From NCBI GenBank assembly GCA_963666345.1, contig OY762721.1, positions 1,696,001 through 1,760,000 on the forward strand: 64,000 nucleotides of DNA, given 5' to 3'. The notes below the pieces were generated by a model that saw only the letters and a list, made by a program, of their open reading frames with translations, was not told the origin of the DNA and searched no databases. This document shows, piece by piece, positions 27,038 through 51,773 of this stretch (position 1 is its first letter; every line of letters begins with the position of its first letter). This DNA comes from Desulfatiglandales bacterium. GTDB lineage: Bacteria; Desulfobacterota; DSM-4660; Desulfatiglandales; Desulfatiglandaceae. The translations under genes and the position numbers were made by a program.

Positions 27038-28770
27038 CTACTCCTCAGAGCGAAGCGCCTCTGCAAGCGCTATCTCGAGATCACACTGCAGGCACCTTCC
27101 CGCCTCCGCCCTTGCCTGTTTATCACCATAACAGAGATCGACCTCGGCAAAGCCACTTCTCTCTGAAACCGGAAGCGAAGGCACACGCTCCCGCCTCATA
27201 TCGGCGAAACCTTCCACCCTTTTCCCTGTGTATGAAAGAGCCTCATCCGCATTTTTCTCTTTGGATTCCATTTCACCATCACCCCCGAGATACCTGTCAA
27301 CGGCCGAGGCGGCCCTTTTCCCCGATGCCACGGCTTGAACCACGGTCCCTGGTCCTGAGGCGGCGTCACCTCCCGCAAATACTCCCGGAATCCCTGTTTC
27401 CGACGTTTCCTCATTCACACCGATGAGATCCCCCTTGATATCAATGCCTACCCCCTCAAGAAAGGAAAGTTCACTTGTCTGGCCTATCGCCAGGATTACC
27501 TGATCGGTTTCGACCCTCTTTTTTGTATCGTCAAAGGCGGGGCAGAAATTTCCTTTTCATCAAAGACGGATGAACAGCGGACAAGTTCCACACCTGTTAT
27601 CTGTCCTCCGGCCGACATGATTTCACTCGGGCCCCATGACGGCAGAAGGCCTACCCCCTCTTCAAGCGCCATCTCAATCTCCCGGGGGTTTGCAGGCATC
27701 TCTTCCCTGCTCTCCAGGCATGCCATTACGACCTCTTTGGCACCCAGCCTGAGGCAGGTCATTGCTACGTCAACAGCCACATTGCCTCCTCCAACGACCA
27801 GAACCCTCTCTTTCAGTCCCAGGGATTCAGCTTCGCTCGCGGCGATAAGAAAATCCATACCCCAATGTACACCCTTAAGATCCGATCCCTTAAGAGGGAT
27901 CTTCCTGCTCGACCATAGCCCTGTTGCGATAAACACCGCGTCAAAACCCCTTTTCAGTTCCCGGATCCCGAAATCCACCCCCAGTCTCCTGCCCGCATTC
28001 AATTCGATACCCATATCAAGGAGCTGAGCTATCTCTGTTTCCAGGATATCCTCTGGAAGCCTGTAAAAGGGGATACCGTATCTCATCATGCCGCCCGGTT
28101 TCGGCTTTGCCTCGAATATCACTACCCTGTGGCCCTTTTTTCTCAGGTAAAAGGCCGCAGTCAGTCCTGCCGGCCCCGCACCTATAACGGCGACCTTTTT
28201 ACCGGTGTCTTTTCCGGCACCCGGCATATCGCGCAAATCTCCCGCATTGTCGGCCGCGAACCTCTTTAGCGCGCATATTGATACCGGTTCATTGACCTCG
28301 CCTCTTCTGCACATATCCTCACATGGATGAGTACATACCCTGCCGAGTATGCCGGGAAAAGGAACGCTTTCAAGTATAAGCCTGTACGCCTCATCATTTC
28401 TTCCCGCCGCAATATGCCTCAGGTATCCCGGCACATCCACACCCGCCGGACATGCCTCGATACAGGGAGGCGATTTGGGCCTGAACCCTTCCGGGGACAG
28501 TGCCCTCAGGGGTCTTATGACCTCCAGTATGGATACCCCGTTCGGGCAGACTCCTTCACATCTTCCGCAGGCAGTACAATTCCAGGGCTGGGGAGTGTCT
28601 GAAATCTCCTCTGCCAGTCCCAGTTCCACGTACCTCAAAAGCCTCCTGACATTGAACCCGTCGACACCTGTTATGGGGCAGGCGGAGCTGCACAGGCCGC
28701 ACTGCTCACAAGTACTGAACATATGTGCCTGTGAAAAAAGGCTTTCAGCCGGTCCGGTATTCATTTTCAT
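27038..28770 (-). pseudogene. HdrC-like 4Fe-4S / GltD-like FAD-NAD(P) oxidoreductase fusion, split by a single frameshift (real or a sequencing error)
   Basis: CEQCGLCSSACP and CTACGRCEGVCP, PCIEACP, GRVCTHPCEDMC, GAGPAG and GGGNVA. After SSVFDEK (about 27553) homology continues in another frame (NFCPAFDD...VILAIGQ...FAGGDA...RCLQC) to 27038. Confidence 0.8.
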
Positions 28771-28823
28771 CTCTATCGAACTCCTCTTAAGGGAATCTCT
28801 TAAAATTACTGGCACCTCGAATC

Positions 28824-30941
28824 TTAAAGCTTCAATTCCTCGACCATCCGGCGCATGGTATTGGCAAACTTGGGTCCGTCAGCGGCGGAGCACCATACAT
28901 TCCAGAGCCTCTCCGGGTCGTACCCCTTTTTGGCCAGCTTTCTCTTTGCCCTGTCGACCCTCTTTTCAGCGGCATAGTTGCCCGATATATAGTGGCACGT
29001 GGGAAACTCGCATCCCGCAACCAAAACCCCTGCCGCACCCAGATCAAAGGCCCTTTCGATCATTTTTATTGAAATGCGGGCGGAACACATCACCCTTATC
29101 AAACGGGCGTTGGGGGGGTACTGGAGCCTGCTAACCCCTGCCATGTCCACACCGCCGAGGGCACACCAGTGACATACGAATCCTACAATCTTCTTTTCAG
29201 GATTCTCTTCAAGTGCCGCTTCAACCTGAGCCAGTATCTGTTCATCCGAATAGTGAATAATGGTAATGCATTCCTTCGGACAATCAGCGGCGCACAGACC
29301 GCATCCCTTACAGAGCGCCTTTATGACAACAGGCATTTTATCTTCATTCAACTTTATCGCATTGTAGGGGCATCTCTTGTAACATAGGCCGCATGCATTA
29401 CAGTCCGTAAGATCGATATCGGCCACGATCCCCTCCGCCTCGATAAAACCGTTGTTCATCGGTATGGAGAGCCTCATTGCGGCTCCCATACCCTCCTCGC
29501 AACTGTCCTTTATCCCCTTTGGATTCTTGGCACACCCGCACAGGGCGATGCCGTCGAACGGAAAATCAAGAGGCCCCAGCTTGACATGCCTTTCCTGAAA
29601 GAATCCGTCCGAATTTGAGGATACCTTAAGGTGCCCTTTTATCTGCTCCACCGTGTCGTCACCCCTGAAACCGGTGGTGAGAACAACAAGGTCGGCGGGC
29701 AATCGGAACTGCCGCCCCAGAAGCATGTCGAACACGTTCACGGACAGGTCGCCGTCACTGCCGCTCACTTCGGGATAATCGCCGTCCGGGAACCTCAGAA
29801 ATTTGACGCCCGCCTCTTTGGCCGCGTCAAGCTGGAAATGCTCCTCCTTGACCATGCTCAAATCCCTGTAAAGGATGAAGACATTCACCTTGCTGTTAAG
29901 TCCCTTTATTGCCATGGCGTTTTTTACCGAAACCGGGCATCCTATGTTGCAGCAACCTCTGGAACCATTCTTTGAATTAACGCAGTTGATCACCACCACG
30001 TTTGTTATTTCCGAATCAACCCCGGAAATATTAAGGGAGTATTCACCTGCCTCATGATCAACTTCCCCTGCATCGGCCCGCCACTTCCTGATAATTTCTT
30101 CGAGCTGTAACTGGGTCACCACCCTGCTGTCTTTTCCGTACAGGAATTCCTCGGGGGGGTCGATCTCCTGCATTCCGGTCGCCACCACAACGGTTGAGAC
30201 TTCTACCTGCCGGGGCTCCCCGCCCACCTTCAGGCCCACCTTATAGTTACCAATATAACCTTCAACCGAATCGATCTCCGTGTCGGTATAGACGACGATA
30301 TGAGGGTGAGAGGTAACCTGCTCCACTTTTTTGGCCAGCAGCAGCGAGGAATCCATGCTTTCCCTGCCGTGAGAAACGGAACAGACCCTGTTAAGGAGCC
30401 CTCCCAGTTCATTTTTCTTTTCAACAATAATGCTTTTGAATCCCTGATCGGCCAGATTAACGGCCGCGGTCATTCCTGACATGCCCCCCCCGATTATCAG
30501 GCATTCTCTGCCTACCGGCAGTCTTATCTCCTCTCCTTCTTCAAGAAGGACGGCCTTTGCCACACCCATCTTGACCAGATCCTTTGCCTTTTCGGTAGCG
30601 GCATCCGGTTGTTTCATATGAACCCATGAGACCTGCTCCCTTATACTTACAAACTCAAGAAGGTAGGGGTTGAGGCCCGCCTCCTTTACCGTGGCCTTAA
30701 AAAGAGGTTCATGTGTCCTCGGGGTACAGGATGCTATTACAACCCTGTTAATATCGTGCTCCTTGATCGAATCCCTCATATCGGAAAGCGCGTCCACGGA
30801 ACAGGACCATTTCCCCTCATCCGCGAAAGCAACCATATCAAGGCCCTTTGCGTACTCGACTACATCGGGAACATTTACGACTCCCGCTATATTGGAGCCG
30901 CAGTCACAGACAAAAACTCCGACCCTTATTTCATCATTCAT
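28824..30941 (-). CDS. hdrA: HdrA-family flavoprotein fused to an MvhD/FlpD [2Fe-2S] domain
   Basis: VGVFVCDCGSNI, SCTPRTHE, IREQVSWVH, GGGMSG, a ferredoxin pair, and C-terminal CHWC, RVMCSAR and GCEFPTCHY. Confidence 0.88.
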   Translation of the reverse strand: MNDEIRVGVFVCDCGSNIAGVVNVPDVVEYAKGLDMVAFADEGKWSCSVDALSDMRDSIKEHDINRVVIASCTPRTHEPLFKATVKEAGLNPYLLEFVSIREQVSWVHMKQPDAATEKAKDLVKMGVAKAVLLEEGEEIRLPVGRECLIIGGGMSGMTAAVNLADQGFKSIIVEKKNELGGLLNRVCSVSHGRESMDSSLLLAKKVEQVTSHPHIVVYTDTEIDSVEGYIGNYKVGLKVGGEPRQVEVSTVVVATGMQEIDPPEEFLYGKDSRVVTQLQLEEIIRKWRADAGEVDHEAGEYSLNISGVDSEITNVVVINCVNSKNGSRGCCNIGCPVSVKNAMAIKGLNSKVNVFILYRDLSMVKEEHFQLDAAKEAGVKFLRFPDGDYPEVSGSDGDLSVNVFDMLLGRQFRLPADLVVLTTGFRGDDTVEQIKGHLKVSSNSDGFFQERHVKLGPLDFPFDGIALCGCAKNPKGIKDSCEEGMGAAMRLSIPMNNGFIEAEGIVADIDLTDCNACGLCYKRCPYNAIKLNEDKMPVVIKALCKGCGLCAADCPKECITIIHYSDEQILAQVEAALEENPEKKIVGFVCHWCALGGVDMAGVSRLQYPPNARLIRVMCSARISIKMIERAFDLGAAGVLVAGCEFPTCHYISGNYAAEKRVDRAKRKLAKKGYDPERLWNVWCSAADGPKFANTMRRMVEELKL

Positions 30942-32302
30942 TTCACGTCCCTCACCTGGTTTCTTACAACCGCCTTCATACCGGCTGCGCAGGCCTGAAC
31001 CACGGACTCCGAGATATCGATAGGCCCGGTTGCTCCCCCGCACAGATAGATTCCTTCCACCGCCGTCTCAAGAGGAGACACCAGAGGGTCCTTTTCCTTG
31101 AAAAACCCCAGCTCGTCCAGTTCGATCCTCAACACCTTGGCAAGTCTTTCGTTCCGGTCATTCGGCACAAGACCCATGGAAAGCACAAGAAGATCAAATT
31201 CTTCCTCAACGATTTCTCCCGTCTCCAGGCTTTCATACCTGAGAATCAGGTTTTTTGTTTCCTTTTCTTCAATAACATCAAAAGGCCTTGCCCTTACATA
31301 TCTGACCCCGTTGTCGAGCGCTTTTTCATAAAAAGCCCAGAAGCCTTTTCCGTAGGCCTTGAGATCATTATAAAAAATTGTGGCCCCTACCGACGAATCA
31401 TGCTCCTTGGTGATAATCGTCTGCTTTGCGGCAATCATGCAGCATACCTTCGAGCAGTAGGGCAGCCCTGTTTCAAGCCCCCTTCCGGCGCATTGAATCC
31501 ATGCTATCCGGTGGGCATGACTTTTATCGGAGGGCCTTATTATCCGGCCTGCCGTGGGACCCCCGGCATTCATCAACCTTTCGAACTGCAGATTGGTTAT
31601 GACATTTTCATGTTCACCATACCCGTATAGCCCCGGAGCGGGCTGAGCCGAAGCGATACCTGAGGCGACCACTATGCTTTGTACTTCCAGGTTAAGATTT
31701 CTGTTCGACTGCCAGAGTCGCACCGCATCCTTTCCCTCCTCCTGACAGGCCTTGACACAAAGGGCGATCGGGCACTCCCGGCACTGACTGCAATCCACAA
31801 CGCAGCCTCCCACGCAGGCTCCCTGCTCTCTCATATTACCGTAGCGACAATCGGGGTCTATTACCGCGACATTGGGTACGGCCTGAGGAAAAGGCATATA
31901 GATGAGTTTTCTCATACCTCCTATCTTGCCGTCCATTTCGTCCGGTATGCTGACCGGGCAGGCCTCCATGCAGGCGCCGCATCCAGTACACTTTTCCTCG
32001 TCTATGAATTTGGCCTTCTGAACCAGTTTTACCTTGAAACCTCCGTCCGACTTTTTGACCTTTCTGATCTCGGTATTTGTCAGGATCTCTATGTTGGGTT
32101 CATTATCCACTTCGTACATCTGAGGTGCTTCGATACAAATCGAACAGTCGTTGGTGGGAAAAGTCTTATCGAGCCTTGCCATCATTCCACCGATACTGGC
32201 CGTATCATCCATCAGATAGACATGTGTACCGTATCTGGCGGCATTCAGCGCGCAGTTTATGCCGGCTATTCCGCCTCCTATAATCAATATCGATGCGTCC
32301 AT
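30938..32302 (-). CDS. hdrA: HdrA-family flavoprotein (lacks the N-terminal Fe-S domain; Cys-expanded inserted ferredoxin)
   Basis: GGGIAG, LDKTFPTNDCSIC, CTGCGACMEACP, FPQAVP, QFERLMNAGGPT, YCSKVCC and GPIDISES. Confidence 0.9.
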   Translation of the reverse strand: MDASILIIGGGIAGINCALNAARYGTHVYLMDDTASIGGMMARLDKTFPTNDCSICIEAPQMYEVDNEPNIEILTNTEIRKVKKSDGGFKVKLVQKAKFIDEEKCTGCGACMEACPVSIPDEMDGKIGGMRKLIYMPFPQAVPNVAVIDPDCRYGNMREQGACVGGCVVDCSQCRECPIALCVKACQEEGKDAVRLWQSNRNLNLEVQSIVVASGIASAQPAPGLYGYGEHENVITNLQFERLMNAGGPTAGRIIRPSDKSHAHRIAWIQCAGRGLETGLPYCSKVCCMIAAKQTIITKEHDSSVGATIFYNDLKAYGKGFWAFYEKALDNGVRYVRARPFDVIEEKETKNLILRYESLETGEIVEEEFDLLVLSMGLVPNDRNERLAKVLRIELDELGFFKEKDPLVSPLETAVEGIYLCGGATGPIDISESVVQACAAGMKAVVRNQVRDVK

Positions 32303-32529: not shown

Positions 32530-32739
32530 TCAAATCTCGGTTATAATTATTGCCCCCGATTTACACACTGCCACGCAGGTCCTGCATCCGAGGCAATTCT
32601 GTGGTCTTACTGCCTGAGCCTTGTGAGACATGTCAAAGACATCTACAGGACAAAACTTAAAGCATTCCTCACAGCCGTCACACTTTTCAGCATCAATGTG
32701 CACCAGATAAACTTCGAAAGACTTGTATTTTTTACCCAT
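32530..32739 (-). CDS. 2x[4Fe-4S] ferredoxin
   Basis: CDGCEECFKFCP and CLGCRTCVAVC. Confidence 0.85.
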   Translation of the reverse strand: MGKKYKSFEVYLVHIDAEKCDGCEECFKFCPVDVFDMSHKAQAVRPQNCLGCRTCVAVCKSGAIIITEI

Positions 32740-32832
32740 AAGTTGTTTCAAAACCGGTTGAAATCGATATTTGCATCAAAACCCATACACTGCCCATCCC
32801 AAAATAAGGTCATACGCTCCATTGAAGTTTAA

Positions 32833-33097
32833 GGACCTTCTCCCGATTAATTGGTCAATTAGCATATCTTTTTTACACAGTGCGGCATATCAGGATTCGA
32901 GGGACCAAGGGGCCAAGGGTTCGAGTGAAAAACAGAGAGAAATCTAATGGAATCCTGATTTTTAGTCGATGAAATATCCACACACAAGCAGAAGAAAATT
33001 CGATGCAGCAGAAATAACATATTTAGACACCAACCACTTGAACCCCGGCCCCTGGAACCCGGGAACCCGCTGTGAAGCAGTGGGACTGAGCGAAGCG
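32833..33097. repeat. MITE-family copy with inverted octamer arms (no right terminal repeat found)
   Basis: Left end GGACCTTCTCCCGATTAATTGG resembles 59776; AAGGG(T/G)CC-type arm at 32892-32927 and complementary GAACCC arm at 33035-33068; the tail GAAGCAGTGGGACTGAGCGAAGCG matches 59839-59862 in inverted orientation. Confidence 0.7.
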
Positions 33098-33532
33098 CTA
33101 TTTTTTCAGTTCCTCCCACTTGTAGTCGATAAGCTCGGTTAAGACTCCGTTCAGTTTTTTTGGGTGAACAAAGGCAAATTCACAATCTCGAAAGGGTCTT
33201 GCGATTTCTCCACGCTTATCAGGGATAAAGGGGTATCCCTTGCCCTTCATCTCATCCACGGCTTCACGGGTATTGTCGACATTAAAGCTGATCAGCATGA
33301 CCCCTTCACCGTTTTTTTCTATGAACTTGGCCACATCACCTTCAGGGGATGTGGATTCCATCAATTCGAAGCCTACCTCCCCGACCCAGTAACGGGCGAC
33401 GTTTATCTTTTCAGGTTCATCCACATATGCGTCGTCCGGGCCTGATTTACCCAAAAGCGGCTCCCAGGTCTTTTTCGCCTCTTCCAGATCTTTTACCGCG
33501 ATGCAGATATGGTCTATCTTGTTGGCCTTCAT
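33098..33532 (-). CDS. VOC family protein, methylmalonyl-CoA epimerase-like
   Basis: KIDHICIAV, FELME, VAKFIEKNGEG and FVHPKKLNGVLTEL. Confidence 0.85.
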   Translation of the reverse strand: MKANKIDHICIAVKDLEEAKKTWEPLLGKSGPDDAYVDEPEKINVARYWVGEVGFELMESTSPEGDVAKFIEKNGEGVMLISFNVDNTREAVDEMKGKGYPFIPDKRGEIARPFRDCEFAFVHPKKLNGVLTELIDYKWEELKK

Positions 33533-33614
33533 AACAGACTCCTTGAGATGAGCTTTCACCCCATACCGGGCTGCCGGGACAGTCCGGCATGAGGAAAGCT
33601 CCCGTTTTGATTGC

Positions 33615-33821
33615 TTAGAATGTTACCTTTTCCAGCGGAATGGTGATCGCCTGATCAGGGCAGATGCTTCCGCATTCATTGCAGTCCTCACAGATGAATT
33701 CGGTAACCACGACCCTGCCGTCCTGCACCCTAACCGCCGAATCAGGGCATACCTCTACACACAGGGGTTGGACATTGCCCCCACACATGGTGCATTTTTC
33801 CATATCTATCTGAGCAGCCAT
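33615..33821 (-). CDS. 2x[4Fe-4S] ferredoxin
   Basis: CTMC-x6-CVEVCP and CEDCNECGSICP; GGAG ribosome-binding site. Confidence 0.85.
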   Translation of the reverse strand: MAAQIDMEKCTMCGGNVQPLCVEVCPDSAVRVQDGRVVVTEFICEDCNECGSICPDQAITIPLEKVTF

Positions 33822-33836
33822 TTTAAACTCCCTATA

Positions 33837-34364
33837 TTATTTTTTTTTGTAAAGCCTTATGAGATACTCTCCTTCGCCCCTGGGAATAGCCTTGAGCATT
33901 TCAAGTCCCAGATCGATATTGAAAAACATGTTCACGTCTTCAAGTATGGCCTTGAACAGGCTCTCTCTTGTAACCGCCACCTCTTCCATGGGGACTCCGA
34001 ATTCCTTGGCAGCGGTAGGCCATGGGCATCGGGTGCACCGGATAAAGACCTCACCCGGGCTTTCTCCCTTTTCTGCAAACGCAAGCCCTCCCTCGGTCAC
34101 CCACACCCCCGCCATCGCCCTTCCGAGGTTGAGAATAAAGGCATCTTCCCCTTTCAGCCAGTTGAGTCTGGGCAGGAAGCTCTTGCCTATATCCTTTCCC
34201 ATATGCTCGGCCGCCTTCACCGCGATACCGGCAGGATCGGCATCAGGGCCGGCCAGTTCAAGCGCCACTTCACGCCACCGGTAATAGGTTTTGCAGATTT
34301 CAGTCTGGGCGCCATGCATGTTTTTCCATAATTTACTTATTTCCTTTTCTGCGTTAACTGGCAT
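33837..34364 (-). CDS. Hypothetical protein (V4R/ATC-hydrolase-like fold suspected)
   Basis: 175 aa, AGGAG ribosome-binding site, short spacing between the OYE and ferredoxin genes; CTRCPW motif. Confidence 0.75.
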   Translation of the reverse strand: MPVNAEKEISKLWKNMHGAQTEICKTYYRWREVALELAGPDADPAGIAVKAAEHMGKDIGKSFLPRLNWLKGEDAFILNLGRAMAGVWVTEGGLAFAEKGESPGEVFIRCTRCPWPTAAKEFGVPMEEVAVTRESLFKAILEDVNMFFNIDLGLEMLKAIPRGEGEYLIRLYKKK

Positions 34365-34377
34365 CTTCTCTTCCTCC

Positions 34378-36360
34378 TTATATCCTTAGACCGATCCGGT
34401 AACCGTCATGGACGGCGCTTGAAAGATTCCTCGGGACAAGTGCGTCACCAACGGCAAAGAGCTCCATGCCCTCCGCCTGAACCGCCTTTTTCAATCCTTC
34501 GTTGGCCTCCCTCTCCGAGATCACTATGGTGTCGAATTTTACCGGGAAGCGGTAGCCGTCATAGGTCTTGACCGTAATCTCGCCATCTGTGATCTCTTCG
34601 ATATCACAGTCATTATAGGCCATGACCCCGTTTTGTCTGAGATAGATCATATAACGCCATTTGAAGGACGGATTGATATCAAAGCCCGCGCTCTTTTCTC
34701 TTCCCACAATGGTGACCTTCTTCCCCTCTTTTGCGAGCTTGAGCGCAACTCCTATCCCGGGTTTTCTGTTTCCCCATACCACGACCCGCTCTCCGACTTC
34801 CGCCTTGCCGCTCATCACATCCAGGACATTGACGATATTTTCCCCCTCTCCCGGAAGTTTCGGGTATACGGGGCCTGTGGCAAGCACCACGCTGTCGGGC
34901 ATCTCATCCTGTATCAGCTCTTCGGTCACCTCGGTTGCCAGGTGGAATACGACACCGTATTTTTCACACATCGTCTTCTGATACTTGACGCATGTCATCA
35001 GTTCTTCGTCGCCGTACGGGGCCTGTGATGCCTCAAGAAGGGTCCCGCCTATTTCATCTCTCTTGTCGTAGACATGGACCTCGTGTCCCCTCTGTGCGGC
35101 GACATAGGCGCATTCCAGACCGGCGGGTCCGGCTCCCACAATCATAATCTCTTTTTTGTCATCTTCTTCCACCTCTTTCGGGTAGAAGCCGTCATCATGC
35201 TCATGGGCGCAAAGAGGGTTTATGTAACAGGTCATCGGCGCATCACGGAACAATCTGGCAAGGCAAAGATTACAGGCAACGCAGTGCCTGATCTCTTCTT
35301 CCCTGCCCTCCAGAACCTTTTTGGGCATGTAAGGATCGGCTATCATCGGACGGCACATCTCCCAGAAATCCAGTTCACCGTCTCCTATCGCCTTATCAGG
35401 CCGATCAGGCGTAAAGAGACGATATGCCATCTGGACCGGCACCTTCACATGCTCCTTTGCCCTCTTTGCAAGATGGAGCCAGTTTCCCTGGGGGATATCC
35501 CTGCTTATTACCGGGTATATGGATTCCTGCCAGCCGAGGGTACAGCTTATGTAATCGGCGCCGGCCTCCTCCGCGAGCTGGTAGGTGATCATCGACTCTT
35601 CAGGCGTATTACCCCTTACGTCATCCAGCAGTTCCTCTGAACAAAGTCTTATTCCTACAGGGATATCCGGGCCGCAGGCCTCTTTTACCCCCTGAATGAT
35701 CTCTACCATGGCCTGGCACCTGCCTCTTATATCCCCGCCGTATTCATCGGTCCGCCTGTTCGTATAGCTTGAGAGAAAATTGGAGATAAGATATCCCACG
35801 ATGCCCGATATCTCCATCACGTCGAAGCCGGCCTCCACGCCTCTTCTGGCCGATTCGACATGCTGTCTGATCATCTCCTTCACCTCTGCGTTGGTCATCT
35901 CATCCATCGGCTTGAATATTCTCAGCCTTTGAGGCACTGCGGAAGGACCGTGCCCGCTGTCCACTTCGACCGCGCCGACTCTTCCGCAGTCCATAAGCTG
36001 AAATCCCGCTATGGCCCGTTCTCCATGTATGGCATCGGCCATCTTCTTGAGCCCCGGGATGAACTTGTCGTCCCAGCAGCCCGCCTGTCCCACATAACCC
36101 TGTCCCTTGCGCGGCTCATCCATATAGACTCCCTGCATGAAACAGAGTCCTCCCACGACCCCCTCGGCCCTAGACCTTATATAGGCCACATCGGCATCGG
36201 TAATAAAACCGTGATGATCGTTGAGGTTGTCTTCGGTAGCCGCATACTTGATCCTGTTAGGGACCATCAGGTTCCCCAACTCGATCGGCTTGAAAATATT
36301 AGGATACCTTTTTGCTCCCGGATACGAGGAGTAATCCCATTCAAACAATACTTTGGCCAT
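34378..36360 (-). CDS. OYE-family FMN/[4Fe-4S]/FAD oxidoreductase (dienoyl-/aryl-CoA reductase-like)
   Basis: TIM barrel (PNRI, GYLISNF, NRRTDEYGG), CVACNLC...CYINP cluster motif and GAGPAG FAD domain; 660 aa. Confidence 0.88.
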   Translation of the reverse strand: MAKVLFEWDYSSYPGAKRYPNIFKPIELGNLMVPNRIKYAATEDNLNDHHGFITDADVAYIRSRAEGVVGGLCFMQGVYMDEPRKGQGYVGQAGCWDDKFIPGLKKMADAIHGERAIAGFQLMDCGRVGAVEVDSGHGPSAVPQRLRIFKPMDEMTNAEVKEMIRQHVESARRGVEAGFDVMEISGIVGYLISNFLSSYTNRRTDEYGGDIRGRCQAMVEIIQGVKEACGPDIPVGIRLCSEELLDDVRGNTPEESMITYQLAEEAGADYISCTLGWQESIYPVISRDIPQGNWLHLAKRAKEHVKVPVQMAYRLFTPDRPDKAIGDGELDFWEMCRPMIADPYMPKKVLEGREEEIRHCVACNLCLARLFRDAPMTCYINPLCAHEHDDGFYPKEVEEDDKKEIMIVGAGPAGLECAYVAAQRGHEVHVYDKRDEIGGTLLEASQAPYGDEELMTCVKYQKTMCEKYGVVFHLATEVTEELIQDEMPDSVVLATGPVYPKLPGEGENIVNVLDVMSGKAEVGERVVVWGNRKPGIGVALKLAKEGKKVTIVGREKSAGFDINPSFKWRYMIYLRQNGVMAYNDCDIEEITDGEITVKTYDGYRFPVKFDTIVISEREANEGLKKAVQAEGMELFAVGDALVPRNLSSAVHDGYRIGLRI

Positions 36361-36432: not shown

Positions 36433-37629
36433 TTACGGTAATCCGAATATGCTTACTGCGCTTACATGTATGCCCACGTTTCCTCCGACATTGTGAATAA
36501 GTCCCAGTTTCGGGTTTTTGAGCTGTCTTTCGGGGTTATCCACCCGTCCCTGAAGTTGTTTGTATACCTCGTAGGTCATCCTCAGACCGCTTGCCGAAAG
36601 AGGGTGCCCGAAACACTTAAGACCCCCGTCCGTATTTATAGGCTGCGCGCCCGATAAGAGATATCTGCCCGCTTCAATGTCCTCAGGCGCCTTGCCCCTC
36701 TCGCTGAAACCCAGATCCTCGATGGTTATCAGCTCGGTGGTGCTGAAGCAGTCGTGGAGTTCGGCCATGCTGATCTCTTCCCTGGGATTTTTGATGCCCG
36801 CCTCTTTGTAGGCGGCATTTGCCGCTGCAACGTTCTCCGGGAAACTCAAAAAATCAAATTCCTGCTGCATTGTCGACTGGCCGGCCCCTGTGGCAACCCC
36901 CTGCCCTTTTACCAGTATGTAGTCGTCCCTGAGTGTCTTTGCTATCTCAGGTGTAGTTACAATGGCCGCTGCCCCTCCGTCACTCATGCCGCACGCGTCA
37001 TATAGGGTGTAGGGCCATGATATGATTCTGGCCTTAAGCACGTCTTCCACGGTTATCTTTCGGTGCAGATGCGCCTTGGGGGTCAGAAGCCCGTTGTCGT
37101 GGTTCTTGACGTTTATGATTGCAAGCATCTTTTTGAATCCTTCGAAATCCCAGTTATAATCATCCTTGTAATGATAAAAATATCTGGTCCCGTACTGCCC
37201 GAACTGGCTCGCGGGCGGGATGTCCCATTCGGTCATACCCCTGTCAAGAGGCTCCTGGATGAACAGACCGAACCCGCCGTGATGATCCTTTGTCTTTTCA
37301 ACTCCGCATGCCAGTACGATATCAAAGACACCTGAAGCGACTCCGTAGCAGGCGTTTCTTAGGACATCCTGACCGCCCGCGCAAAAATTCTCCACCCTTG
37401 ACACGGGGATATATTGCGTCTTGAGGGCCCTGGCAAGATGCGCGCCGGTAAAACCGGACTCCCTGCTCGCATACCATGCCGCCTGAATGTCCTTAGGTTC
37501 GATTCCAGCATCCTCTATGGCCTCGTAGCATGAATCCACTACCAGGTCTTCTATCCCTTTATCCCACAGTTCACCGAACTTCGTGCAACCCATGCCGACG
37601 ATAGCTACCTTGTCTCTGATGCTTCCCAT
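36433..37629 (-). CDS. SCP2/BbsB-type thiolase (IaaA-like)
   Basis: VENFCAGG, ELHDCF and GGLKCFGHP motifs. Confidence 0.88.
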   Translation of the reverse strand: MGSIRDKVAIVGMGCTKFGELWDKGIEDLVVDSCYEAIEDAGIEPKDIQAAWYASRESGFTGAHLARALKTQYIPVSRVENFCAGGQDVLRNACYGVASGVFDIVLACGVEKTKDHHGGFGLFIQEPLDRGMTEWDIPPASQFGQYGTRYFYHYKDDYNWDFEGFKKMLAIINVKNHDNGLLTPKAHLHRKITVEDVLKARIISWPYTLYDACGMSDGGAAAIVTTPEIAKTLRDDYILVKGQGVATGAGQSTMQQEFDFLSFPENVAAANAAYKEAGIKNPREEISMAELHDCFSTTELITIEDLGFSERGKAPEDIEAGRYLLSGAQPINTDGGLKCFGHPLSASGLRMTYEVYKQLQGRVDNPERQLKNPKLGLIHNVGGNVGIHVSAVSIFGLP

Positions 37630-37671: not shown

Positions 37672-39087
37672 TCATCTCACAGGTTTCGATTCCCAGAAAT
37701 ATGTGCAGACCCCTTCACGGTCCGTTATCTCATCCCAGGGGGAGTATCTCCTGAAGGTCATCTCCACCGGCATGCCGACAGTTATGTTTTCACTGTCCGC
37801 CTCCGTCATATAACTCTGGATCCTTCCTCCCCCCTCGAAATCGACCTCGGTTGTAACTACAGGTATCTCAGCTCTGGGAGTAATATAATCCAGGTTATAG
37901 GTGAAGATCCTGCCCTTCCTGCCTATGAAGCTGTATTGCTCCATGCAATCTCTTTCACGGCATTTGGTGCAGACACGCTGCGGGGGATACTGAACATACC
38001 CGCATGACAGGCACCTTGAACCATGAAGGCTGACGGTTCGATCGTATTCCCTTTTCGCCGCAACCGCCGAGTATGCCGCGTGAGGCCCGGCCGCCTTTTC
38101 AATGGGGATTATGCCTCTCCACCTGAGATACCTCATGTAATCGTCGACCACCCTCCTGGAACCGCTGTGCCCTCCGATCCCCATGCTGTTTTCTCTTGCC
38201 TTTTCAATATTGCCGTTAACCTTGAAAGCGAATGCATCCGCGCCGTTTCCGTAACCCGCACAGAGTATAAGTTCCCCTTTTGATGATTGCTCAAGGGCCG
38301 CGACCAGCCCCATGAGCACGGAAGCGGCCCCTGTATCGCCTATAGAGTCTATAAGGGGGTCCTGGAGCTGTTTTTCGACGTCAAAGCCGAGGGATTTTGA
38401 GAGCTTGACACCTCGTCTGCCGTCCGGGCTGTAAAGACAGACACGGTCAAAATCATCCGGCTTGAATCCGTATCTCTCCATCAATCCCCTTATCGCCTTG
38501 CCCATGGACGGCAGATAGCCCTGTTCAACGGCGAAACGGCTCTCCCAGCTTCTCACGTATCGATCATGGTGGCTTCTCCATACATCTATTATCTCGTTGT
38601 ATACATGGAAACTTCCTTCAAGGGTCACGGCCGCATCCTTGTCTCCCAATAATATCGCGGCAGCGCCGTCTCCCAGGTTTTTTTCCTCCATTGATCCCGG
38701 GTGACCCAGCCTGCAGTCCGAGGCCACCACCATGGCGGATCTCGTTGAGCCTGCCATGACGCTGTCAAAACCCGCCTTGAGGGCCGCGGTACCGGCGCGC
38801 AGGCAGTTGCCGAATTCGGCGGTGTAGGTCTGCTCCCTGAAGTCGGAGGCCATGGCAATGGTGGTAGCCGATGAATGTTCCCTGTACGGGGCTGAAGTCG
38901 TGCCGAAATAGATCGCTTCAACACTATTTCGGTCCCTTCCCTTGAGACAGTCACTGACCGCCTCCACCGCCATCGTTACGCTGTCTTCGTCAAAGCTGCA
39001 GATCGCTTTTTCTCCCCTGCCGCCTATGACTTTCCTGTCCAGTCTGAAAAGCGGGACATATGCGCCGAATGATGTAATTCCGACCAT
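37672..39087 (-). CDS. HMG-CoA-synthase-like domain fused to a DUF35 Zn-ribbon/OB fold (thiolase partner)
   Basis: DEDSVTMA, GDGAAA, IGDTGAA and YGNGAD, then CLSC..PPQRVCTKC and GMPVEMTFRR. Confidence 0.85.
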   Translation of the reverse strand: MVGITSFGAYVPLFRLDRKVIGGRGEKAICSFDEDSVTMAVEAVSDCLKGRDRNSVEAIYFGTTSAPYREHSSATTIAMASDFREQTYTAEFGNCLRAGTAALKAGFDSVMAGSTRSAMVVASDCRLGHPGSMEEKNLGDGAAAILLGDKDAAVTLEGSFHVYNEIIDVWRSHHDRYVRSWESRFAVEQGYLPSMGKAIRGLMERYGFKPDDFDRVCLYSPDGRRGVKLSKSLGFDVEKQLQDPLIDSIGDTGAASVLMGLVAALEQSSKGELILCAGYGNGADAFAFKVNGNIEKARENSMGIGGHSGSRRVVDDYMRYLRWRGIIPIEKAAGPHAAYSAVAAKREYDRTVSLHGSRCLSCGYVQYPPQRVCTKCRERDCMEQYSFIGRKGRIFTYNLDYITPRAEIPVVTTEVDFEGGGRIQSYMTEADSENITVGMPVEMTFRRYSPWDEITDREGVCTYFWESKPVR

Positions 39088-39096
39088 GTGGTACTC

Positions 39097-41118
39097 CTAT
39101 TTTGTGTATTTCGGTTTCCGCTTCTCCAGAAAGGCCGTGATTCCCTCTCTGGCTGCATCGGTGCAGGCAATCTCCCCAAAGCCCCGGTATCCTATTTCAA
39201 GCGCATCCCCGAAGTTTTCCGCGGCGGCGCCCTCTTTTATGGTCTTGACCGCTATTTGAACCGCTTCATTGCTGAGTGAAAGCCTTCCCGCCTTCGGTTC
39301 CGCCGGGACTGCGATTTCCGGTATATCCACCTTCCCTTCCCGGATCACTTCGACCTTTCCCTCCAGTTCCTTTACCTCTTCGACGGCGGCCATGATATTG
39401 CTGCGGTAATCCTCCGTAATTGTCCTAACCATCCCGATTTGCCTTGCATCCTCGACTTTGATCGATTTTCCAAGGGTTATCATCTCATGAAACAGCCCGG
39501 CGCCTTCCGGCCACTTTCTATAGGGTACGATACAGCCTCCGATGCCCGGAATTATCCCCAGGGTGATTTCAGGGAACTGGAATCTTGCGTTTTTCGTCGC
39601 CGTCATGCCGTGGCACCTTATCGCGACCTCAAGCCCGCCTCCCAGGGCAAGCCCGTTTATGGCGGCGACAACCGGTTTTTTCATGCGGTCCATATGGAGC
39701 TGTACCTTGGCGCACGCCCTGGAGTATTCGATTGACGCGTCGGCGTCTCCCAGCATTTCGGGAAATTTTCCTATATCGGCCCCCGCGGAAAAGGCGCTGT
39801 TTCCGTAGCCTGTAATTACGAATCCCTTTACCTTGGGATCTTCTTCGTAAAGTTTCAATGCGGAGAGGATCTCCTCTGTTATCTCGTCGTTCAAGGCGTT
39901 CATGGCCTGCGGCCTTCTTATGGTAATGACCTTTACCCCTTCGATCTCATCGACAAGAATATGCCGAAAAAAATCCTGATAAGCATCAACGGGTTGTTTT
40001 GCCTCAGGAAAACCCGCTCTTTGACTTTTAAACAGGCCCATTACCTTTTTCACTTCTCCTTCACCCAGATCTTTCATGATGTCAAAGGGGCCCTTTTTAA
40101 ACCCGAGCGCTATCTGGCATCCCATGTTGAGATCCGCATTTGTGCCTATTCCCCTGTCAATGATATCAAAGGATTGTGAAAATAGTATTCCCAGCATTCT
40201 GTTTCTTACAAAGGATGCCGTCTCATCCGGGACCTCCACCTTTGCGCCGGGACGATGGGTCAGCCATTTTTTAACGGACCCAAGGATGCCCGCGGGTTTG
40301 TAATGTGCACTCTCCTCCATCTGAAGTGAATTCGTCTCTATGATTATGGGGTTACCGTTGGCCATGTTCAGAACGAAGAAGGGGCCGGCAAAAACGAACT
40401 CCTCAGCGACCTTGTCTATCTGAGAGGCGGTGGCCCTTTCAAGAAGGTAAGCGGCCTCGTTACACCAGTTATCGAATACGCGGTCCAGCATGAAACATAT
40501 TGCGTTGTCCGTAATAAGAGGGACCTTCCCCGTCTGTGCGAAAAACCAGAAAAGGTAATCCATAACCTCTTTGCTTACCCTCTCCCAGCTTATTACCTCA
40601 ACCGGAAGACTTCGCCATGCTGGAGCGAAAAAATGCGTCACGGTTGTTCTTTCCTGCCTTTTCATATTGCAGAAGATCCTGTCGGCGGGTATTGAACTCG
40701 TGTTTGACGTGATGATAGTCTTCTCACTTACTATTCCTTCGATAGTCTCAAATATTTTCCGCTTCAGGGCGATGTTTTCCGTAGCAGCCTCTATGACAAG
40801 CTCGCAGTCCTTCAATCGCTCGTAATCTGTCGTGTACACTATGTTTTCCAGAACCGCGTCGGCCTTTTCCTGCTTCATCTTTCCCTTGTCAAGCGCCTTT
40901 GCGACATACCCCGAAAACCTTTCCCGAGCCTTTTTAAGGGGCTCCTCGACTATGTCGACGACATACAGGGTAGTTGCCGGAAGGGCGCTTTTGAGATAAT
41001 AACCGATATCCGGTCCGATCGTACCGGCTCCCACCACCGCCACTTCCCCGGGCAGGGCAAAAGGTTCGACCAGAAGGGGGTTATGATATGAATGGTACAG
41101 GCTCTTTGCTTGATCCAT
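39097..41118 (-). CDS. 3-hydroxyacyl-CoA dehydrogenase / enoyl-CoA hydratase fusion (IaaP-like)
   Basis: GAGTIG, EAATE, SNTSS and HFF in the N-terminal half; FSAGADI, GGGLE and PEITLGIIPG in the C-terminal half. Confidence 0.9.
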   Translation of the reverse strand: MDQAKSLYHSYHNPLLVEPFALPGEVAVVGAGTIGPDIGYYLKSALPATTLYVVDIVEEPLKKARERFSGYVAKALDKGKMKQEKADAVLENIVYTTDYERLKDCELVIEAATENIALKRKIFETIEGIVSEKTIITSNTSSIPADRIFCNMKRQERTTVTHFFAPAWRSLPVEVISWERVSKEVMDYLFWFFAQTGKVPLITDNAICFMLDRVFDNWCNEAAYLLERATASQIDKVAEEFVFAGPFFVLNMANGNPIIIETNSLQMEESAHYKPAGILGSVKKWLTHRPGAKVEVPDETASFVRNRMLGILFSQSFDIIDRGIGTNADLNMGCQIALGFKKGPFDIMKDLGEGEVKKVMGLFKSQRAGFPEAKQPVDAYQDFFRHILVDEIEGVKVITIRRPQAMNALNDEITEEILSALKLYEEDPKVKGFVITGYGNSAFSAGADIGKFPEMLGDADASIEYSRACAKVQLHMDRMKKPVVAAINGLALGGGLEVAIRCHGMTATKNARFQFPEITLGIIPGIGGCIVPYRKWPEGAGLFHEMITLGKSIKVEDARQIGMVRTITEDYRSNIMAAVEEVKELEGKVEVIREGKVDIPEIAVPAEPKAGRLSLSNEAVQIAVKTIKEGAAAENFGDALEIGYRGFGEIACTDAAREGITAFLEKRKPKYTK

Positions 41119-41254
41119 TTGTAATCTCCCGTTGATGATTGGAATCTTTCAATCTACCTGTTGTGGAAACTCATCCCTTGAAAAACCGGTATACAGTACA
41201 CAAGGAACAAATATCAAAAAAAGAGGCACCGATGACCCGCTGCCTTCCCTGGCA

Positions 41255-42982
41255 CTATATATTTGCCTTTAAAGAATCCCTGTTTCTTACGGTTGATTCA
41301 AATTCCAGATCGACTCCGCCGTCATCAAAAACCGCTCCATATTCAGACACGGCTTTCTCAACGCTCACGTATCCGTCGTAGATATCCTCCTGAAGCGATT
41401 CCAGTTCCCGCTCGAGGGGGTCTCCGAATCCTCCGCCACCGGCCGCATCCATTACGATTTCGTCACCCGGGCTCAGTTGAGTGAGCCCGTAAGGGTTTCC
41501 CCGGCCGCCGTTTACGAGGAATTGCGCCTTTGTCCCGTCTTTTCCTCCAAAGAGCCCCTCCGGCGGATATCGGTACCTTCCCGACTGAATGCCCAGGTTG
41601 ACCGGCGGTCTGGGCGCGTACTCGTCATCAGGTACTTCGATAACGACTCTTCTTCCAAGTCCGCCTTTCATCTTCCCCGGCCCTCCTGAATCTGTAATCA
41701 CGGACCGCTCCTTTATGATAAGCGGAGTGTCGCTTTCAAAAATCTCTACCGGGGTATTTGCACCGTTTGCGGGGAAAATAAAGTCATAGTAACCGTCATT
41801 TGATGAGCTGGCCCCCATGCCCCCGCCCCTTATTATGACGGAGTGCCAGGGGCTTCCCTCGCCTCTTTTCCCGTAAAACACATTCATGGTCGCGGGCGTG
41901 CCGCCGCTTCCGGCAATCACCCTGTCCGGTAAGGCCTTGGCCATTGCCCTGTAGATTATCTCGGTCATAAAATGGCCGATCTGCATGCGTGCGGCTACGG
42001 CAGCCGGAAACCTGCAGTTTACCACACTTCCCTCGGGGGCCTTCAGGCTGATGGGAGATGCGCAACCGTCGTTGTTGGGTATTTCAGGATCGAACATGCT
42101 CTTCATTGCCATAAACACATAGGCATAGGTAAAGTTGTACACCACGTTTCCGCCCCATTCTACCTGGCCCGAGGAACCTGCCAGATCCACCGTGATGTCG
42201 CTGCCTTTGACCTCGACCGCCACATGTATCTCTACATCCTCCTTCCCTTCCATCTGCTCCACAATGCCTTTTGCCCTGTATATGCCGTCCGGGACCTTGG
42301 AAATGGCCTCCCGCATGCTCTTCTCTGTCCTGTCTATAATCTCGTCGGCTATCTCATCAAGGCCGTCCATTTTATAATCATCGAGCATCTGCTTTATCTT
42401 TTCGGCACACACGTGATTTGCCGCAATCTGGCTCCTTATGTCGCCCGTTACCTCATCGGGTGTTCTCACGTTCCATCTTATCATTTCCATTACCGCTTCA
42501 TTCAGTATCCCTGCCTCATAGAGCTTTACAAAGGGGATAAAAAGGCCGTCTTCAAACACGTCATGATTGTCCGAGGAAACCCTGCCTCCTATGTCGGAAT
42601 GATGAAACACACAGGCGGTAAAAGCGGTCAGCTTTCCCTTGTAGAAGATGGGACTCATTACGCATACATCGTTGAGATGCCCGGCCAGCGCCCATGGGTC
42701 GTTCGTGATGAACACGTCGCCGTCTTTGCACTGTCCGGGGGACAGATTATTCACGAGGTTTTTTATGCCCAGGGCCATCGCCCCGGACTGGCCGGGTGTG
42801 GCGAAGCTGCCCTGCGCCAGTTCTCTTCCCCTCCTATCGGTAAACATGCAGGTATAGTCATGGGCATCCCTTAAAAGGCTCGAAAATGCGGTTCTGGCTA
42901 CAGATCCGTCCGCTTCGTCTACCACGGAAATCAATCTTCTCCAAAGGATTTCCAATGTTATGGGATCAAAGGTCAGACCCAT
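41255..42982 (-). CDS. Hydantoinase B/oxoprolinase subunit (Iaa hydantoinase-like)
   Basis: RTAFS, NDPW..GHLND, HHSDIGG, NTPVE, DSGGPG and GGGGFGDP. Confidence 0.9.
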   Translation of the reverse strand: MGLTFDPITLEILWRRLISVVDEADGSVARTAFSSLLRDAHDYTCMFTDRRGRELAQGSFATPGQSGAMALGIKNLVNNLSPGQCKDGDVFITNDPWALAGHLNDVCVMSPIFYKGKLTAFTACVFHHSDIGGRVSSDNHDVFEDGLFIPFVKLYEAGILNEAVMEMIRWNVRTPDEVTGDIRSQIAANHVCAEKIKQMLDDYKMDGLDEIADEIIDRTEKSMREAISKVPDGIYRAKGIVEQMEGKEDVEIHVAVEVKGSDITVDLAGSSGQVEWGGNVVYNFTYAYVFMAMKSMFDPEIPNNDGCASPISLKAPEGSVVNCRFPAAVAARMQIGHFMTEIIYRAMAKALPDRVIAGSGGTPATMNVFYGKRGEGSPWHSVIIRGGGMGASSSNDGYYDFIFPANGANTPVEIFESDTPLIIKERSVITDSGGPGKMKGGLGRRVVIEVPDDEYAPRPPVNLGIQSGRYRYPPEGLFGGKDGTKAQFLVNGGRGNPYGLTQLSPGDEIVMDAAGGGGFGDPLERELESLQEDIYDGYVSVEKAVSEYGAVFDDGGVDLEFESTVRNRDSLKANI

Positions 42983-42993
42983 TTTTCCCTCCT

Positions 42994-45081: not shown

Positions 45082-45172
45082 AAATGCCTCCCGAATCTAC
45101 ACACTGCGAAACGCCGCATTTTAGATAGGATCTGAATGCCTCGTGAACGATAAAAAGGGTATCAACATTCAT

Positions 45173-47569: not shown

Positions 47570-47586
47570 TGCTTCCTCCTGTGGTA

Positions 47587-48069
47587 TTACTCTTTTTCCC
47601 TGCTCATTGCGGCCGCATTTTCTATCGCCTCGACTATCTGAACATATCCCGTGCATCGGCAGATATTCCCTGCGATAGCGGTCCTTATTTCATCCTCCGT
47701 GGGATCGGAGTTCTCCTTGAGTAGAGACTTGGCCGACATGATCATACCGGAAGTACAGAAACCGCACTGAACTCCGTTGTTTTCCAGAAAGGATCTCTGC
47801 AGCGGGTCAAGGGATCCATCCTGAGAAGCAAGCCCCTCAATTGTCGTGACCGATTTACCCTCAATCTCAAAAACAGGATACAGGCAGGAGTTTACCGCGT
47901 CTCCGTCTACCATGACCGTACAGGCTCCGCATTCGCCCACTCCGCAACCCTCCTTTGCCCCGGTAAGTTCGAAATACTCCCTCAGGGTTCTAAGAAGCGA
48001 CCAGGTGGCTGGAACTTCAGCGGTCACGGGATCACCGTTAAGGGTAAAAGGAATTACCAGTTTTTTCAT
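47587..48069 (-). CDS. Xanthine dehydrogenase family [2Fe-2S] small subunit
   Basis: GCGVGECGACTV, QCGFCT and NICRCTGY. Confidence 0.93.
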   Translation of the reverse strand: MKKLVIPFTLNGDPVTAEVPATWSLLRTLREYFELTGAKEGCGVGECGACTVMVDGDAVNSCLYPVFEIEGKSVTTIEGLASQDGSLDPLQRSFLENNGVQCGFCTSGMIMSAKSLLKENSDPTEDEIRTAIAGNICRCTGYVQIVEAIENAAAMSREKE

Positions 48070-48083
48070 TTCAATCTCCTTTG

Positions 48084-48956: not shown

Positions 48957-48967
48957 CTCACCACCCC

Positions 48968-50263: not shown

Positions 50264-50318
50264 GACTTCTATCTCTCCATAAGCAAAATGGTAGGTGAAC
50301 ATCAGGCGATATATTTCA

Positions 50319-50400: not shown

Positions 50401-50463
50401 TCAGCATTTTCAAAAATTTATTGATCTCAACAAAAAAAGCCATGACTTAGCGACTACCCCGGC

Positions 50464-51771: not shown

Positions 51772-51773
51772 CT

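Follow-up and report, generated by a model that had tools for sequence, protein, structure and literature searches.

A candidate ferredoxin-fed aryl-CoA reductase module beside indoleacetate genes in a Desulfatiglandales bacterium

Anaerobic breakdown of indoleacetate, and probably of tryptophan, ends at 2-aminobenzoyl-coenzyme A (2-aminobenzoyl-CoA). To our knowledge, no enzyme that removes this compound in strict anaerobes is known. Which genes might do so is the question raised by a 64,000-nucleotide (nt) stretch of DNA from a Desulfatiglandales bacterium (GenBank assembly GCA_963666345.1, contig OY762721.1, positions 1,696,001 to 1,760,000; hereafter the window). Here, an operon of the indoleacetate (iaa) type is followed by genes for an old yellow enzyme (OYE), a 175-amino-acid (aa) protein (p175), and a ferredoxin. 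An initial annotation proposed that this trio encodes the missing 2-aminobenzoyl-CoA step. Our literature search found no paper joining 2-aminobenzoyl-CoA with OYEs; for the 4-amino isomer, it found only a proposal for a molybdenum (Mo) enzyme.

The trio belongs to a nine-gene module that also includes a VOC protein, a second ferredoxin, two HdrA-like flavoproteins (one of them fused to MvhD), and an HdrC/NfnB-like protein. We tentatively propose that this module is a ferredoxin-fed, Hdr-assisted, type-III-like aryl-CoA reductase that may act on 2-aminobenzoyl-CoA, an assignment we hold as possible and somewhat short of probable. The initial observation of the three genes is confirmed; its interpretation is partly supported and is widened here. 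Placement of the OYE beside 2-naphthoyl-CoA reductase (NCR), adjacency to a thiolase gene, and links to iaa genes all favor the proposed step; the unit is larger than the trio, and the substrate is the more conditional part of the proposal. If it is true, type III reductases would reach beyond polycyclic aromatic hydrocarbons (PAH) to nitrogen-bearing monoaromatics in sulfate reducers of marine sediment. The removal of 2-aminobenzoyl-CoA and the electron donor of type III enzymes are both questions that can now be tested with named genes.

The old yellow enzyme and its active site

Every gene in the OYE region lies on the minus strand. The trio is arranged as follows, with gaps of 13 nt between the OYE and p175 and 15 nt between p175 and ferredoxin 1:

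34378..36360, minus strand: NCR-like flavin mononucleotide (FMN)/[4Fe-4S]/flavin adenine dinucleotide (FAD) OYE (P0001), 660 aa
33837..34364, minus strand: p175 (P0002), 175 aa, conserved, with a predicted Bet3/V4R/H-NOX-type ligand-binding fold; ATC_hydrolase-like below the Pfam threshold; carries a CTRCPW motif
33615..33821, minus strand: 2x[4Fe-4S] ferredoxin 1 (P0003), 68 aa, with 2 Cys motifs and Fer4 matches

The OYE has the full three-domain architecture: a TIM-barrel, a four-Cys [4Fe-4S] linker, and an FAD-binding GxGxxG motif. In Pfam terms, an Oxidored_FMN domain (PF00724; E 5.6e-55, residues 22-355) is followed by Pyr_redox_2. Its cluster cysteines C360, C363, C366, and C378 align with those of NCR and FadH; these cysteines, the GAGPAG motif, and G409, G411, and G414 are invariant among 12 orthologues. 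The best solved match is NCR (PDB 6qkg; 458.9 bits, E 2.5e-136), and Escherichia coli FadH reaches 256.1 bits. When the OYE was searched against 1.84 billion representatives (50% clusters), its own cluster stood at 78%, the next full-length cluster, which bears the motifs of NCR, at 42%, and 3 more at 36-38%. A quick maximum-likelihood tree of 48 representatives grouped 6 OYE-related rows with a Shimodaira-Hasegawa-like approximate likelihood ratio test (SH-aLRT) value of 99, in a clade where the member standing for NCR is recognised by its NCR motifs only. By sequence, the OYE belongs to the NCR-containing branch that acts on CoA esters, which favors the initial annotation.

The FDVMEISGIVGYLISNF segment of the OYE bears EISGIVGY in place of HxxHxY, a pattern (EIHGAHGY type) common among the nearest three-domain OYE representatives. 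The initial annotation read the loss of both His as unusual, which proves overstated: EISGIVGY aligns with EVCAIVGY of NCR, in which Tyr197 is the proton donor, and with EVMGSEGY of FadH. Since NCR and FadH also lack both His, their loss is the rule in the CoA-ester branch, and we rejected the idea of an unusual active site at this position.

Other residues set the OYE apart within this branch. Correspondences with NCR were read by eye from the OYE/NCR alignment, and residue roles were taken from PMC6502838. NCR residues Y82, Y197, Y320, T280, G282, I194, and V195 are kept in the OYE and are invariant in the 12 orthologues; in OYE numbering, the first 5 are Y89, Y190, Y313, T274, and G276. The set that stabilizes the thioester or enolate retains Y313, G276, and T274, with NCR N247 replaced by Cys240, itself invariant in the 12 orthologues. 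NCR H284 is replaced by an equally invariant Gln278, so that, of the two H-bond donors (Y82 and H284) that activate Tyr197 in NCR, the second is lost. H117 becomes Asp124, which is almost invariant in the same set; H123, R155, and Y156 become Ala, Ile, and Phe, a changed proton relay; F375 and V378 both become Leu. The block of the NADPH site by W459 of NCR is likewise missing, the aligned residue being Glu, or Leu in the FadH alignment. As in NCR, the dinucleotide motif of the middle domain is degenerate (WGNRKPGIG, against IGCGGIG in FadH).

In sum of likeness, the OYE shares with NCR and the type III enzymes (DHNCR, AprB-E) a three-domain FMN/[4Fe-4S]/FAD build and a well-supported clade, and with NCR the IVGY proton-donor segment, the four residues equivalent to Y82, Y320, T280, and G282, and the degenerate NAD(P)H motif; ATP-independent action with a low-potential donor would be expected of it, as of type III aryl-CoA reductases generally. 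It differs from NCR in being only about 40% identical, in the substitutions at H284, N247, H117, W459, and the relay, and in being encoded with p175, a VOC protein, 2 ferredoxins, and an Hdr/Nfn-like complex. Judged by these alignments, it forms a tight family of its own within the branch of type III aryl-CoA reductases, marked by a distinct active-site signature.

The same residues bear on one alternative, that of an ordinary FadH-type 2,4-dienoyl-CoA reductase that acts on unsaturated fatty acids and is controlled by a FadR-like TetR repressor. Domain architecture, substrate class (CoA esters), and the Tyr proton donor are those of FadH (1ps9), and the TetR gene that heads most related modules has Bacillus FadR as its best named match, at 104.8 bits (cut-off 200). 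The Tyr of the FadH Tyr166/His252 dyad is kept, but its His is Gln278 and the NADPH-binding GxGxxG is degenerate; the score to FadH falls far under that to NCR (256 against 459 bits), a dedicated Hdr/Nfn-like complex with ferredoxins would be needless, and the window genome already holds 4 other full-length three-domain OYE paralogues. We consider this reading highly improbable.

The nine-gene module and its proposed electron path

The genes that follow the trio, in the direction of transcription, are these:

33098..33559, minus strand: VOC/glyoxalase protein, methylmalonyl-CoA epimerase-like (Glyoxalase_4, E 1.8e-15; TIGR03081, 81.5 bits, cut-off 114.95)
32752..33097, no strand: dispersed-repeat insertion between the VOC gene and ferredoxin 2, with genome-wide matches
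32530..32751, minus strand: 2x[4Fe-4S] ferredoxin 2, 86% identical to a 69-aa open reading frame (ORF) family (29 related loci), one member of which has Fer4 matches
30938..32302, minus strand: HdrA-like flavoprotein 1, 454 aa, QmoA-sized (NF040770 HdrA2, E 7.1e-132; 5odc_A, E 7.1e-110)
28824..30890, minus strand: HdrA-like flavoprotein 2, about 688 aa, ending in an MvhD/FlpD domain (FlpD, E 5.1e-43; HdrA 5odc_A, E 3.7e-111; MvhD 5odc_D, E 1.1e-35)
27059..28815, minus strand: fusion of an HdrC-like Fe-S domain with an NfnB/GltD-like flavoprotein that binds NAD(P), in 2 frames in the window

The module recurs well beyond the window. Searching with an alignment of p175 homologues gave 94 relatives in species-level genomes, from which 80 loci were kept; many of these end at contig borders. 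The OYE is present in 76 of the 80 (76-87% identity), ferredoxin in 77, VOC in 73, HdrA-like protein 1 in 54, HdrA-MvhD in 45, and HdrC/NfnB-like in 32. Three further components emerged from unsupervised clustering of all ORFs in these loci: the second ferredoxin in 29, a class I/II aminotransferase gene inside the operon in 24, and a TetR gene directly upstream of the module in 51. The functional unit is thus not the trio but a nine-gene module with its own Hdr/Nfn-like complex, second ferredoxin, and VOC gene, which mostly forms a separate TetR-headed operon.

Both large flavoproteins are HdrA-like and the MvhD partner domain is present. The two correspond in size to QmoA and QmoB, the second carrying the MvhD domain, in likeness to the HdrABC-MvhAGD, QmoABC, and NfnAB systems. 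The third subunit joins an HdrC/QmoC-like Fe-S domain to an NfnB-like flavoprotein part; against PDB, its orthologue finds NfnA 9n5u (E 2e-105) and NfnI 5jca_L (E 3.6e-71). Unlike Hdr and Qmo, the module lacks HdrB in most loci, lacks the membrane QmoC part and a hydrogenase, and has its HdrC-like domain fused to an NAD(P)-binding flavoprotein. In 4 loci (L028, L032, L050, L055), HdrC-like and HdrB-like (CCG domain) genes replace the NfnB-like gene, which fits an exchangeable high-potential acceptor. In these same 4 loci, an M24 peptidase/creatinase-like gene and hydantoinase A (and B) come after the HdrB/HdrC-like genes.

For type III aryl-CoA reductases, no natural electron donor is known according to PMC6502838. 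That a type-III-like OYE is here encoded, across about 80 species-level genomes, together with 2 ferredoxins and an Hdr/Nfn-like complex points to an electron supply driven by bifurcation. The OYE would be the catalytic subunit of a low-potential system for CoA-ester reduction, self-contained and of the type III aryl-CoA reductase kind. From the architecture of the complex, electrons of reduced ferredoxin would enter the soluble HdrA/HdrA-MvhD/HdrC-NfnB-like assembly and be split at a flavin. One branch would run downhill by way of the HdrC/NfnB-like subunit, with NAD(P)+ as the acceptor (in the 4 relatives named above, an HdrB site instead); the other would run uphill through the 2 small ferredoxins to the FAD, the [4Fe-4S] cluster, and finally the FMN of the OYE. 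Since the NAD(P)-linked subunit is exchangeable for HdrB/HdrC-like genes, its branch looks like an acceptor and not a donor. The stacked aromatic CoA thioester would receive its hydride from FMNH- and its proton from Tyr190.

The proposed logic parallels that of the class II benzoyl-CoA reductase BamBCDEFGHI as summarised in review PMC12016498, where ring reduction is ATP-independent and driven by flavin-based electron bifurcation, and where the complex likewise contains HdrA-like and MvhD-like components as well as a module linked to NAD(P). Unlike Bam, the catalytic subunit here is an OYE flavoenzyme and not a tungsten enzyme of the aldehyde oxidoreductase (AOR) family, and the module has no BamB, BamC, BamD, or NuoEFG-like genes; the true BamB of this genome is encoded elsewhere.

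Electrons might also flow the other way. NAD(P)H would enter at the NfnB-like subunit, and an exergonic reduction at the OYE, with 2-aminocinnamoyl-, cinnamoyl-, or indoleacrylyl-CoA as the arylacrylyl-CoA substrate, would drive reduction of the small ferredoxins, as in Bcd-Etf or caffeyl-CoA reductase. Activated C=C bonds are typical OYE substrates, and such chemistry would agree with the loss of NCR H284 and of the proton relay, with the NfnB-like NAD(P)-binding subunit and 2 ferredoxins, and with the aminotransferase and IorAB genes nearby; 2-aminocinnamoyl-CoA was also the alternative substrate of the initial annotation. Yet the iaa route is described in PMC8360864 as oxidative through aminocinnamoyl-CoA, with its own acyl-CoA dehydrogenase and ETF. 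The loci carry no aryllactyl-CoA dehydratase genes beside the module, the nearest OYE relatives are ring reductases, and in the 4 loci with the HdrB/HdrC-like swap a dithiol would probably be too weak a donor. A bifurcating enoyl-CoA reductase is therefore quite unlikely in our estimate.

Links to indoleacetate breakdown

What the reductase would act on is suggested by the genes upstream:

36433..37629, minus strand: thiolase, the last beta-oxidation gene (Thiolase_N and Thiolase_C; PRK06157, 484.8 bits, cut-off 403, NCBIfam)
37672..61285, minus strand: iaa-type indoleacetate operon, by Pfam and NCBIfam domain content, in 4 parts
operon part 1: family III CoA transferase, ETF beta and alpha, acyl-CoA dehydrogenase, GntR regulator
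operon part 2: B12 mutase small and large subunits, TRAP DctPQM, PaaK-like CoA ligase
operon part 3: three-subunit Mo hydroxylase, then hydantoinase A and B
operon part 4: fused 3-hydroxyacyl-CoA dehydrogenase/enoyl-CoA hydratase, HMG-CoA-synthase-like/OB-fold protein

The OYE directly follows the thiolase, as the initial annotation had it, across a gap of 72 nt. Such an iaa route reportedly has 2-aminobenzoyl-CoA as its end product, which the thiolase should release. All families expected of an iaa set lie in this one co-directional cluster, by domain content and not by orthology to Aromatoleum. Its likeness to the Aromatoleum operon, by family and not by sequence, extends to CoA ligase, Mo hydroxylase, the hydantoinase-like pair, CoA transferase, B12 mutase, acyl-CoA dehydrogenase, beta-oxidation genes, GntR, and a binding protein; the window adds ETF genes and, at the 3' end, the OYE module. 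According to PMC8360864, IaaB is the ligase, IaaL the phenylsuccinyl-CoA transferase, IaaGH the mutase, and IaaF a decarboxylating benzylmalonyl-CoA dehydrogenase; IaaM is also among the gene roles named, and the iaa operons of strict anaerobes carry ETF genes.

A promoter and terminator scan of 26500-38000 returned counts equal to those of shuffled sequence, with no promoter-like or terminator-like site on the minus strand of the thiolase-OYE gap. Parts of both the module and the iaa genes are matched, at 90-99% identity, by metatranscriptome contigs that come from 3 sediment libraries of a single study, and one contig crosses the thiolase/OYE junction (36245-36743); because DNA may be present in the libraries and the contigs show no single transcript, we do not count them as proof of co-transcription. 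The window genome has no TetR orthologue (best match 31%), and its module appears to be placed under the iaa operon. This joining of a TetR-less module to the 3' end of the iaa operon makes the operon's end product, 2-aminobenzoyl-CoA, the most likely substrate.

Elsewhere the two gene sets are seldom neighbors. Iaa-like genes are within reach in 13 of the 80 loci, in 4 arrangements, and the window's thiolase-OYE junction is absent from all 13. They were recognised by hydantoinase A/B (74-82% identity) or by the fused dehydrogenase/hydratase (64-70%). TrpB-like, IorA, and IorB-like genes lie upstream of TetR in L028, L032, L045, and L072 (the last without TrpB-like), with SerC in this block in L032, L045, and L072, a hint that the steps leading from indole or tryptophan, via indolepyruvate, to indoleacetyl-CoA are encoded next to the module.

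The association is stronger when whole genomes are compared. Among 209 genomes of the window's order, 77 have the module and 132 do not. An iaa-type hydantoinase A orthologue occurs in 66 of the 77 and 68 of the 132; Oah, in 65 and 83, respectively. BamB, used as a completeness control, occurs in 55 and 87 and shows no link, so genome completeness alone does not explain the other 2. Counted by hand in high-quality genomes (at least 90% complete, at most 5% contaminated), hydantoinase is present in 33 of 34 with the module and 27 of 59 without; it is held by 38 of the 40 genomes reached from loci of p175 relatives. The co-occurrence check of the initial annotation thus comes out in its favor at the genome level, where module orthologues are not found mostly apart from aminoaromatic catabolism genes; it does so less at the level of loci, given the 13 of 80 and an iaa-like cluster that is common without the module. 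Indeed, hydantoinase A orthologues (at least 74% identity) are found in 134 of the 209 genomes, making the cluster very common in the order. The window's iaa gene order is matched in 4 other genomes of this order: the succession ETF, acyl-CoA dehydrogenase, GntR, mutase, TRAP, ligase, Mo enzyme, and hydantoinase is kept in G136, G156, and G172, and G063 has most of the genes, rearranged. In G172 and G063 the cluster lies far from the module.

These patterns are also what a general reductase might produce, one acting on other aryl-CoA or cyclic dienoyl-CoA esters (benzoyl-, substituted benzoyl-, or cyclohexadienoyl-CoA) and serving the breakdown of aromatics in general, with iaa adjacency reflecting no more than the clustering of aromatic pathways. 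Most loci are stand-alone, TetR-headed operons with variable flanks, 2 of them having an ABC transporter and a CoA ligase upstream. Two near-complete genomes hold the module without a hydantoinase orthologue (G231, G243), the Oah association would fit, and 19 of the 42 genomes having Oah but no BamB carry the module. Nevertheless, in high-quality genomes the module is almost nested within those bearing hydantoinase, it repeatedly lies next to iaa, IorA, and aminotransferase genes in several different layouts, and association with BamB is nil in either direction. We judge a general reductase unlikely, though it is the likeliest of the alternatives.

Another way to account for the links is that the module helps the iaa pathway without touching its end product: the VOC protein would be a (2-aminobenzyl)malonyl-CoA epimerase for IaaF, and the OYE and Hdr proteins would handle pathway electrons. 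PMC8360864 states that IaaF uses one benzylmalonyl-CoA enantiomer, the other being used only after methylmalonyl-CoA epimerase is added, and that its physiological electron acceptor is unknown; methylmalonyl-CoA epimerase is also the best named match of the VOC protein. This reading is very doubtful: the VOC gene accompanies the OYE in 73 of the 80 loci, most of which have no mutase anywhere near, no VOC gene is seen around iaa-like clusters that lack the module, and an NCR-like enzyme with a CoA-ester pocket would be odd as a pure electron carrier.

For a 2-aminobenzoyl-CoA reductase, 2 outcomes can be envisaged. A hydride delivered to the amino-bearing carbon, followed by elimination of ammonia, would yield benzoyl-CoA. 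Alternatively, reduction would give 6-amino-1,5-dienoyl-CoA, whose imine form would hydrolyse to 6-oxocyclohex-1-ene-1-carboxyl-CoA, the substrate of Oah; p175, with its aromatic-ligand-binding fold, and the VOC protein, with its CoA-ester epimerase/isomerase fold, may help such follow-up steps. Association of the module with Oah and not BamB makes us lean slightly to the second. Four genomes of the order that are 95-96% complete have the module and Oah with no BamB orthologue (identity at most 39%) and no BcrB over the cut-off. Taken further, this would amount to an ATP-independent break of a monocyclic ring: an Hdr/Nfn-driven OYE would dearomatise 2-aminobenzoyl-CoA, the enamine would be hydrolysed with p175 and VOC, and Oah would follow directly, bypassing BamB, dienoyl-CoA hydratase, and hydroxyacyl-CoA dehydrogenase. 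We regard this full scheme as speculative and rather improbable. A precedent for the proposed reductase as such comes from PMC13365417, where type III enzymes are shown to be capable of ATP-free reduction of a benzene-type ring. Type III enzymes are known only from PAH degradation according to review PMC12016498, and the present module differs in lying beside amino-aromatic genes.

Several observations weigh against 2-aminobenzoyl-CoA as the substrate. The NCR residues credited with low-potential chemistry are altered (H284, H123, R155, Y156, and W459, with roles as given in PMC6502838). No iaa-like gene is within reach in 67 of the 80 loci, and the 51 loci with their own FadR-like TetR gene imply that the module is normally regulated on its own. 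The iaa pathway needs no module, given that its cluster is intact without one (G136, G156) and occurs in about half of the module-negative genomes. Cross-tabulations also overstate independence, since the genomes compared are related to one another. The window genome encodes a true BamB (1261.8 bits to 4z3w_A) and an Oah over the family cut-off, both far from the window, which could serve after another deaminating enzyme. As for p175, its ATC_hydrolase match is below threshold, and its fold is known mainly for binding and not for catalysis. For 4-aminobenzoyl-CoA, the enzyme proposed in PMC7500099 is a Mo enzyme resembling 4-hydroxybenzoyl-CoA reductase. Finally, reduction of 2-aminobenzoyl-CoA by the OYE is suggested by gene content, family placement, and co-occurrence, all of them readings of sequence.

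Other ring-reduction genes of the window genome were located at 755262-757265, 3367122-3368207, and 3600955-3620146 of its contig C1 (BamB, Oah, and an OYE/AOR region); a search of this genome for class I benzoyl-CoA reductase gave a sub-threshold match only. Near 3.61 Mb, 2 further three-domain OYE paralogues flank an AOR-family gene, which we rejected as a second BamB on account of its closer relation to aldehyde oxidoreductases.

Companion proteins and surrounding DNA

The function of p175 was approached through its family, fold, and possible contact with the OYE. At E <= 0.001 it has 285 homologues; the 120 listed are 64-98% identical and nearly all unnamed. Its score against ATC_hydrolase (PF14196) is 19.8 bits, below the gathering threshold of 28.1, with 2 homologues reaching 24.4 bits, and its language-model neighbors are named ATC_hydrolase or DUF6125; we treat this likeness as a lead only. 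The motif CTRCPW spans residues 110-115, of which only C110 is invariant; a CxxC metal site was rejected, since 10 of the 17 homologues aligned have Asp at the position of the second Cys.

Bet3/V4R/H-NOX-type folds are known for holding hydrophobic or aromatic ligands. The structural model of p175 has a mean predicted local distance difference test (pLDDT) value of 85, and Foldseek matches it to Bet3/TRAPPC3 (E 4.7e-6). With VIA, Bet3 gave Z 9.4 (145 residues aligned, root-mean-square deviation 3.5), DmpR Z 9.0, PoxR Z 8.6, and V4R 2oso Z 5.9, values close to the level that the tool calls common. The predicted fold also resembles H-NOX, and the DmpR and PoxR matches are phenol-binding sensory domains.

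A complex prediction for the OYE and p175, one of the checks named by the initial annotation, scored 0.50 against 0.00 for the best of 3 controls, with contacts agreeing to at least 87% between runs and partner pLDDT of at least 84. This weakly supports the pair: at scores up to 0.60, the mark was reached by 18 of 157 solved complexes and by both of the passing mismatches (of 215), and passes at the 0.50 level are more often wrong than right unless the pairing is likely beforehand.

Gene boundaries in the Hdr part call for 2 corrections. The listed ORF of HdrA-MvhD reaches 31043, and its relatives (688 aa) begin near 30890. The L013 orthologue of the HdrC/NfnB-like protein aligns to 28737-27529 in one frame and to 27553-27059 in another. 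An additional T behind 27553 is present in a near-identical DNA contig (X3) and in 2 RNA-library contigs, so that the split is probably an assembly error, and we rejected a pseudogene.

The insertion at 32752-33097 has 55 further matches in the genome, and its last 40-50 nt or so recur in most of the matches listed. A 256-nt copy at 80% identity lies elsewhere in the genome, and an environmental contig skips 263 nt here; a repeat search confined to 32700-33150 found none. An 86-aa ORF at 32859-33119 has no family match and lies in this dispersed repeat, and is probably not a gene.

Two observations concern the wider surroundings. In L061, L074, L079, L082, L087, and L089, the region upstream of TetR holds a class IV (branched-chain type) aminotransferase and a MeaB-like mutase-associated GTPase, a block that adjoins PqiA/MlaD-type genes. 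In the window, past the iaa-like cluster, a 397-aa protein at 62668-63861 shows weak VWA/MadC-like and CoxE-like matches only.

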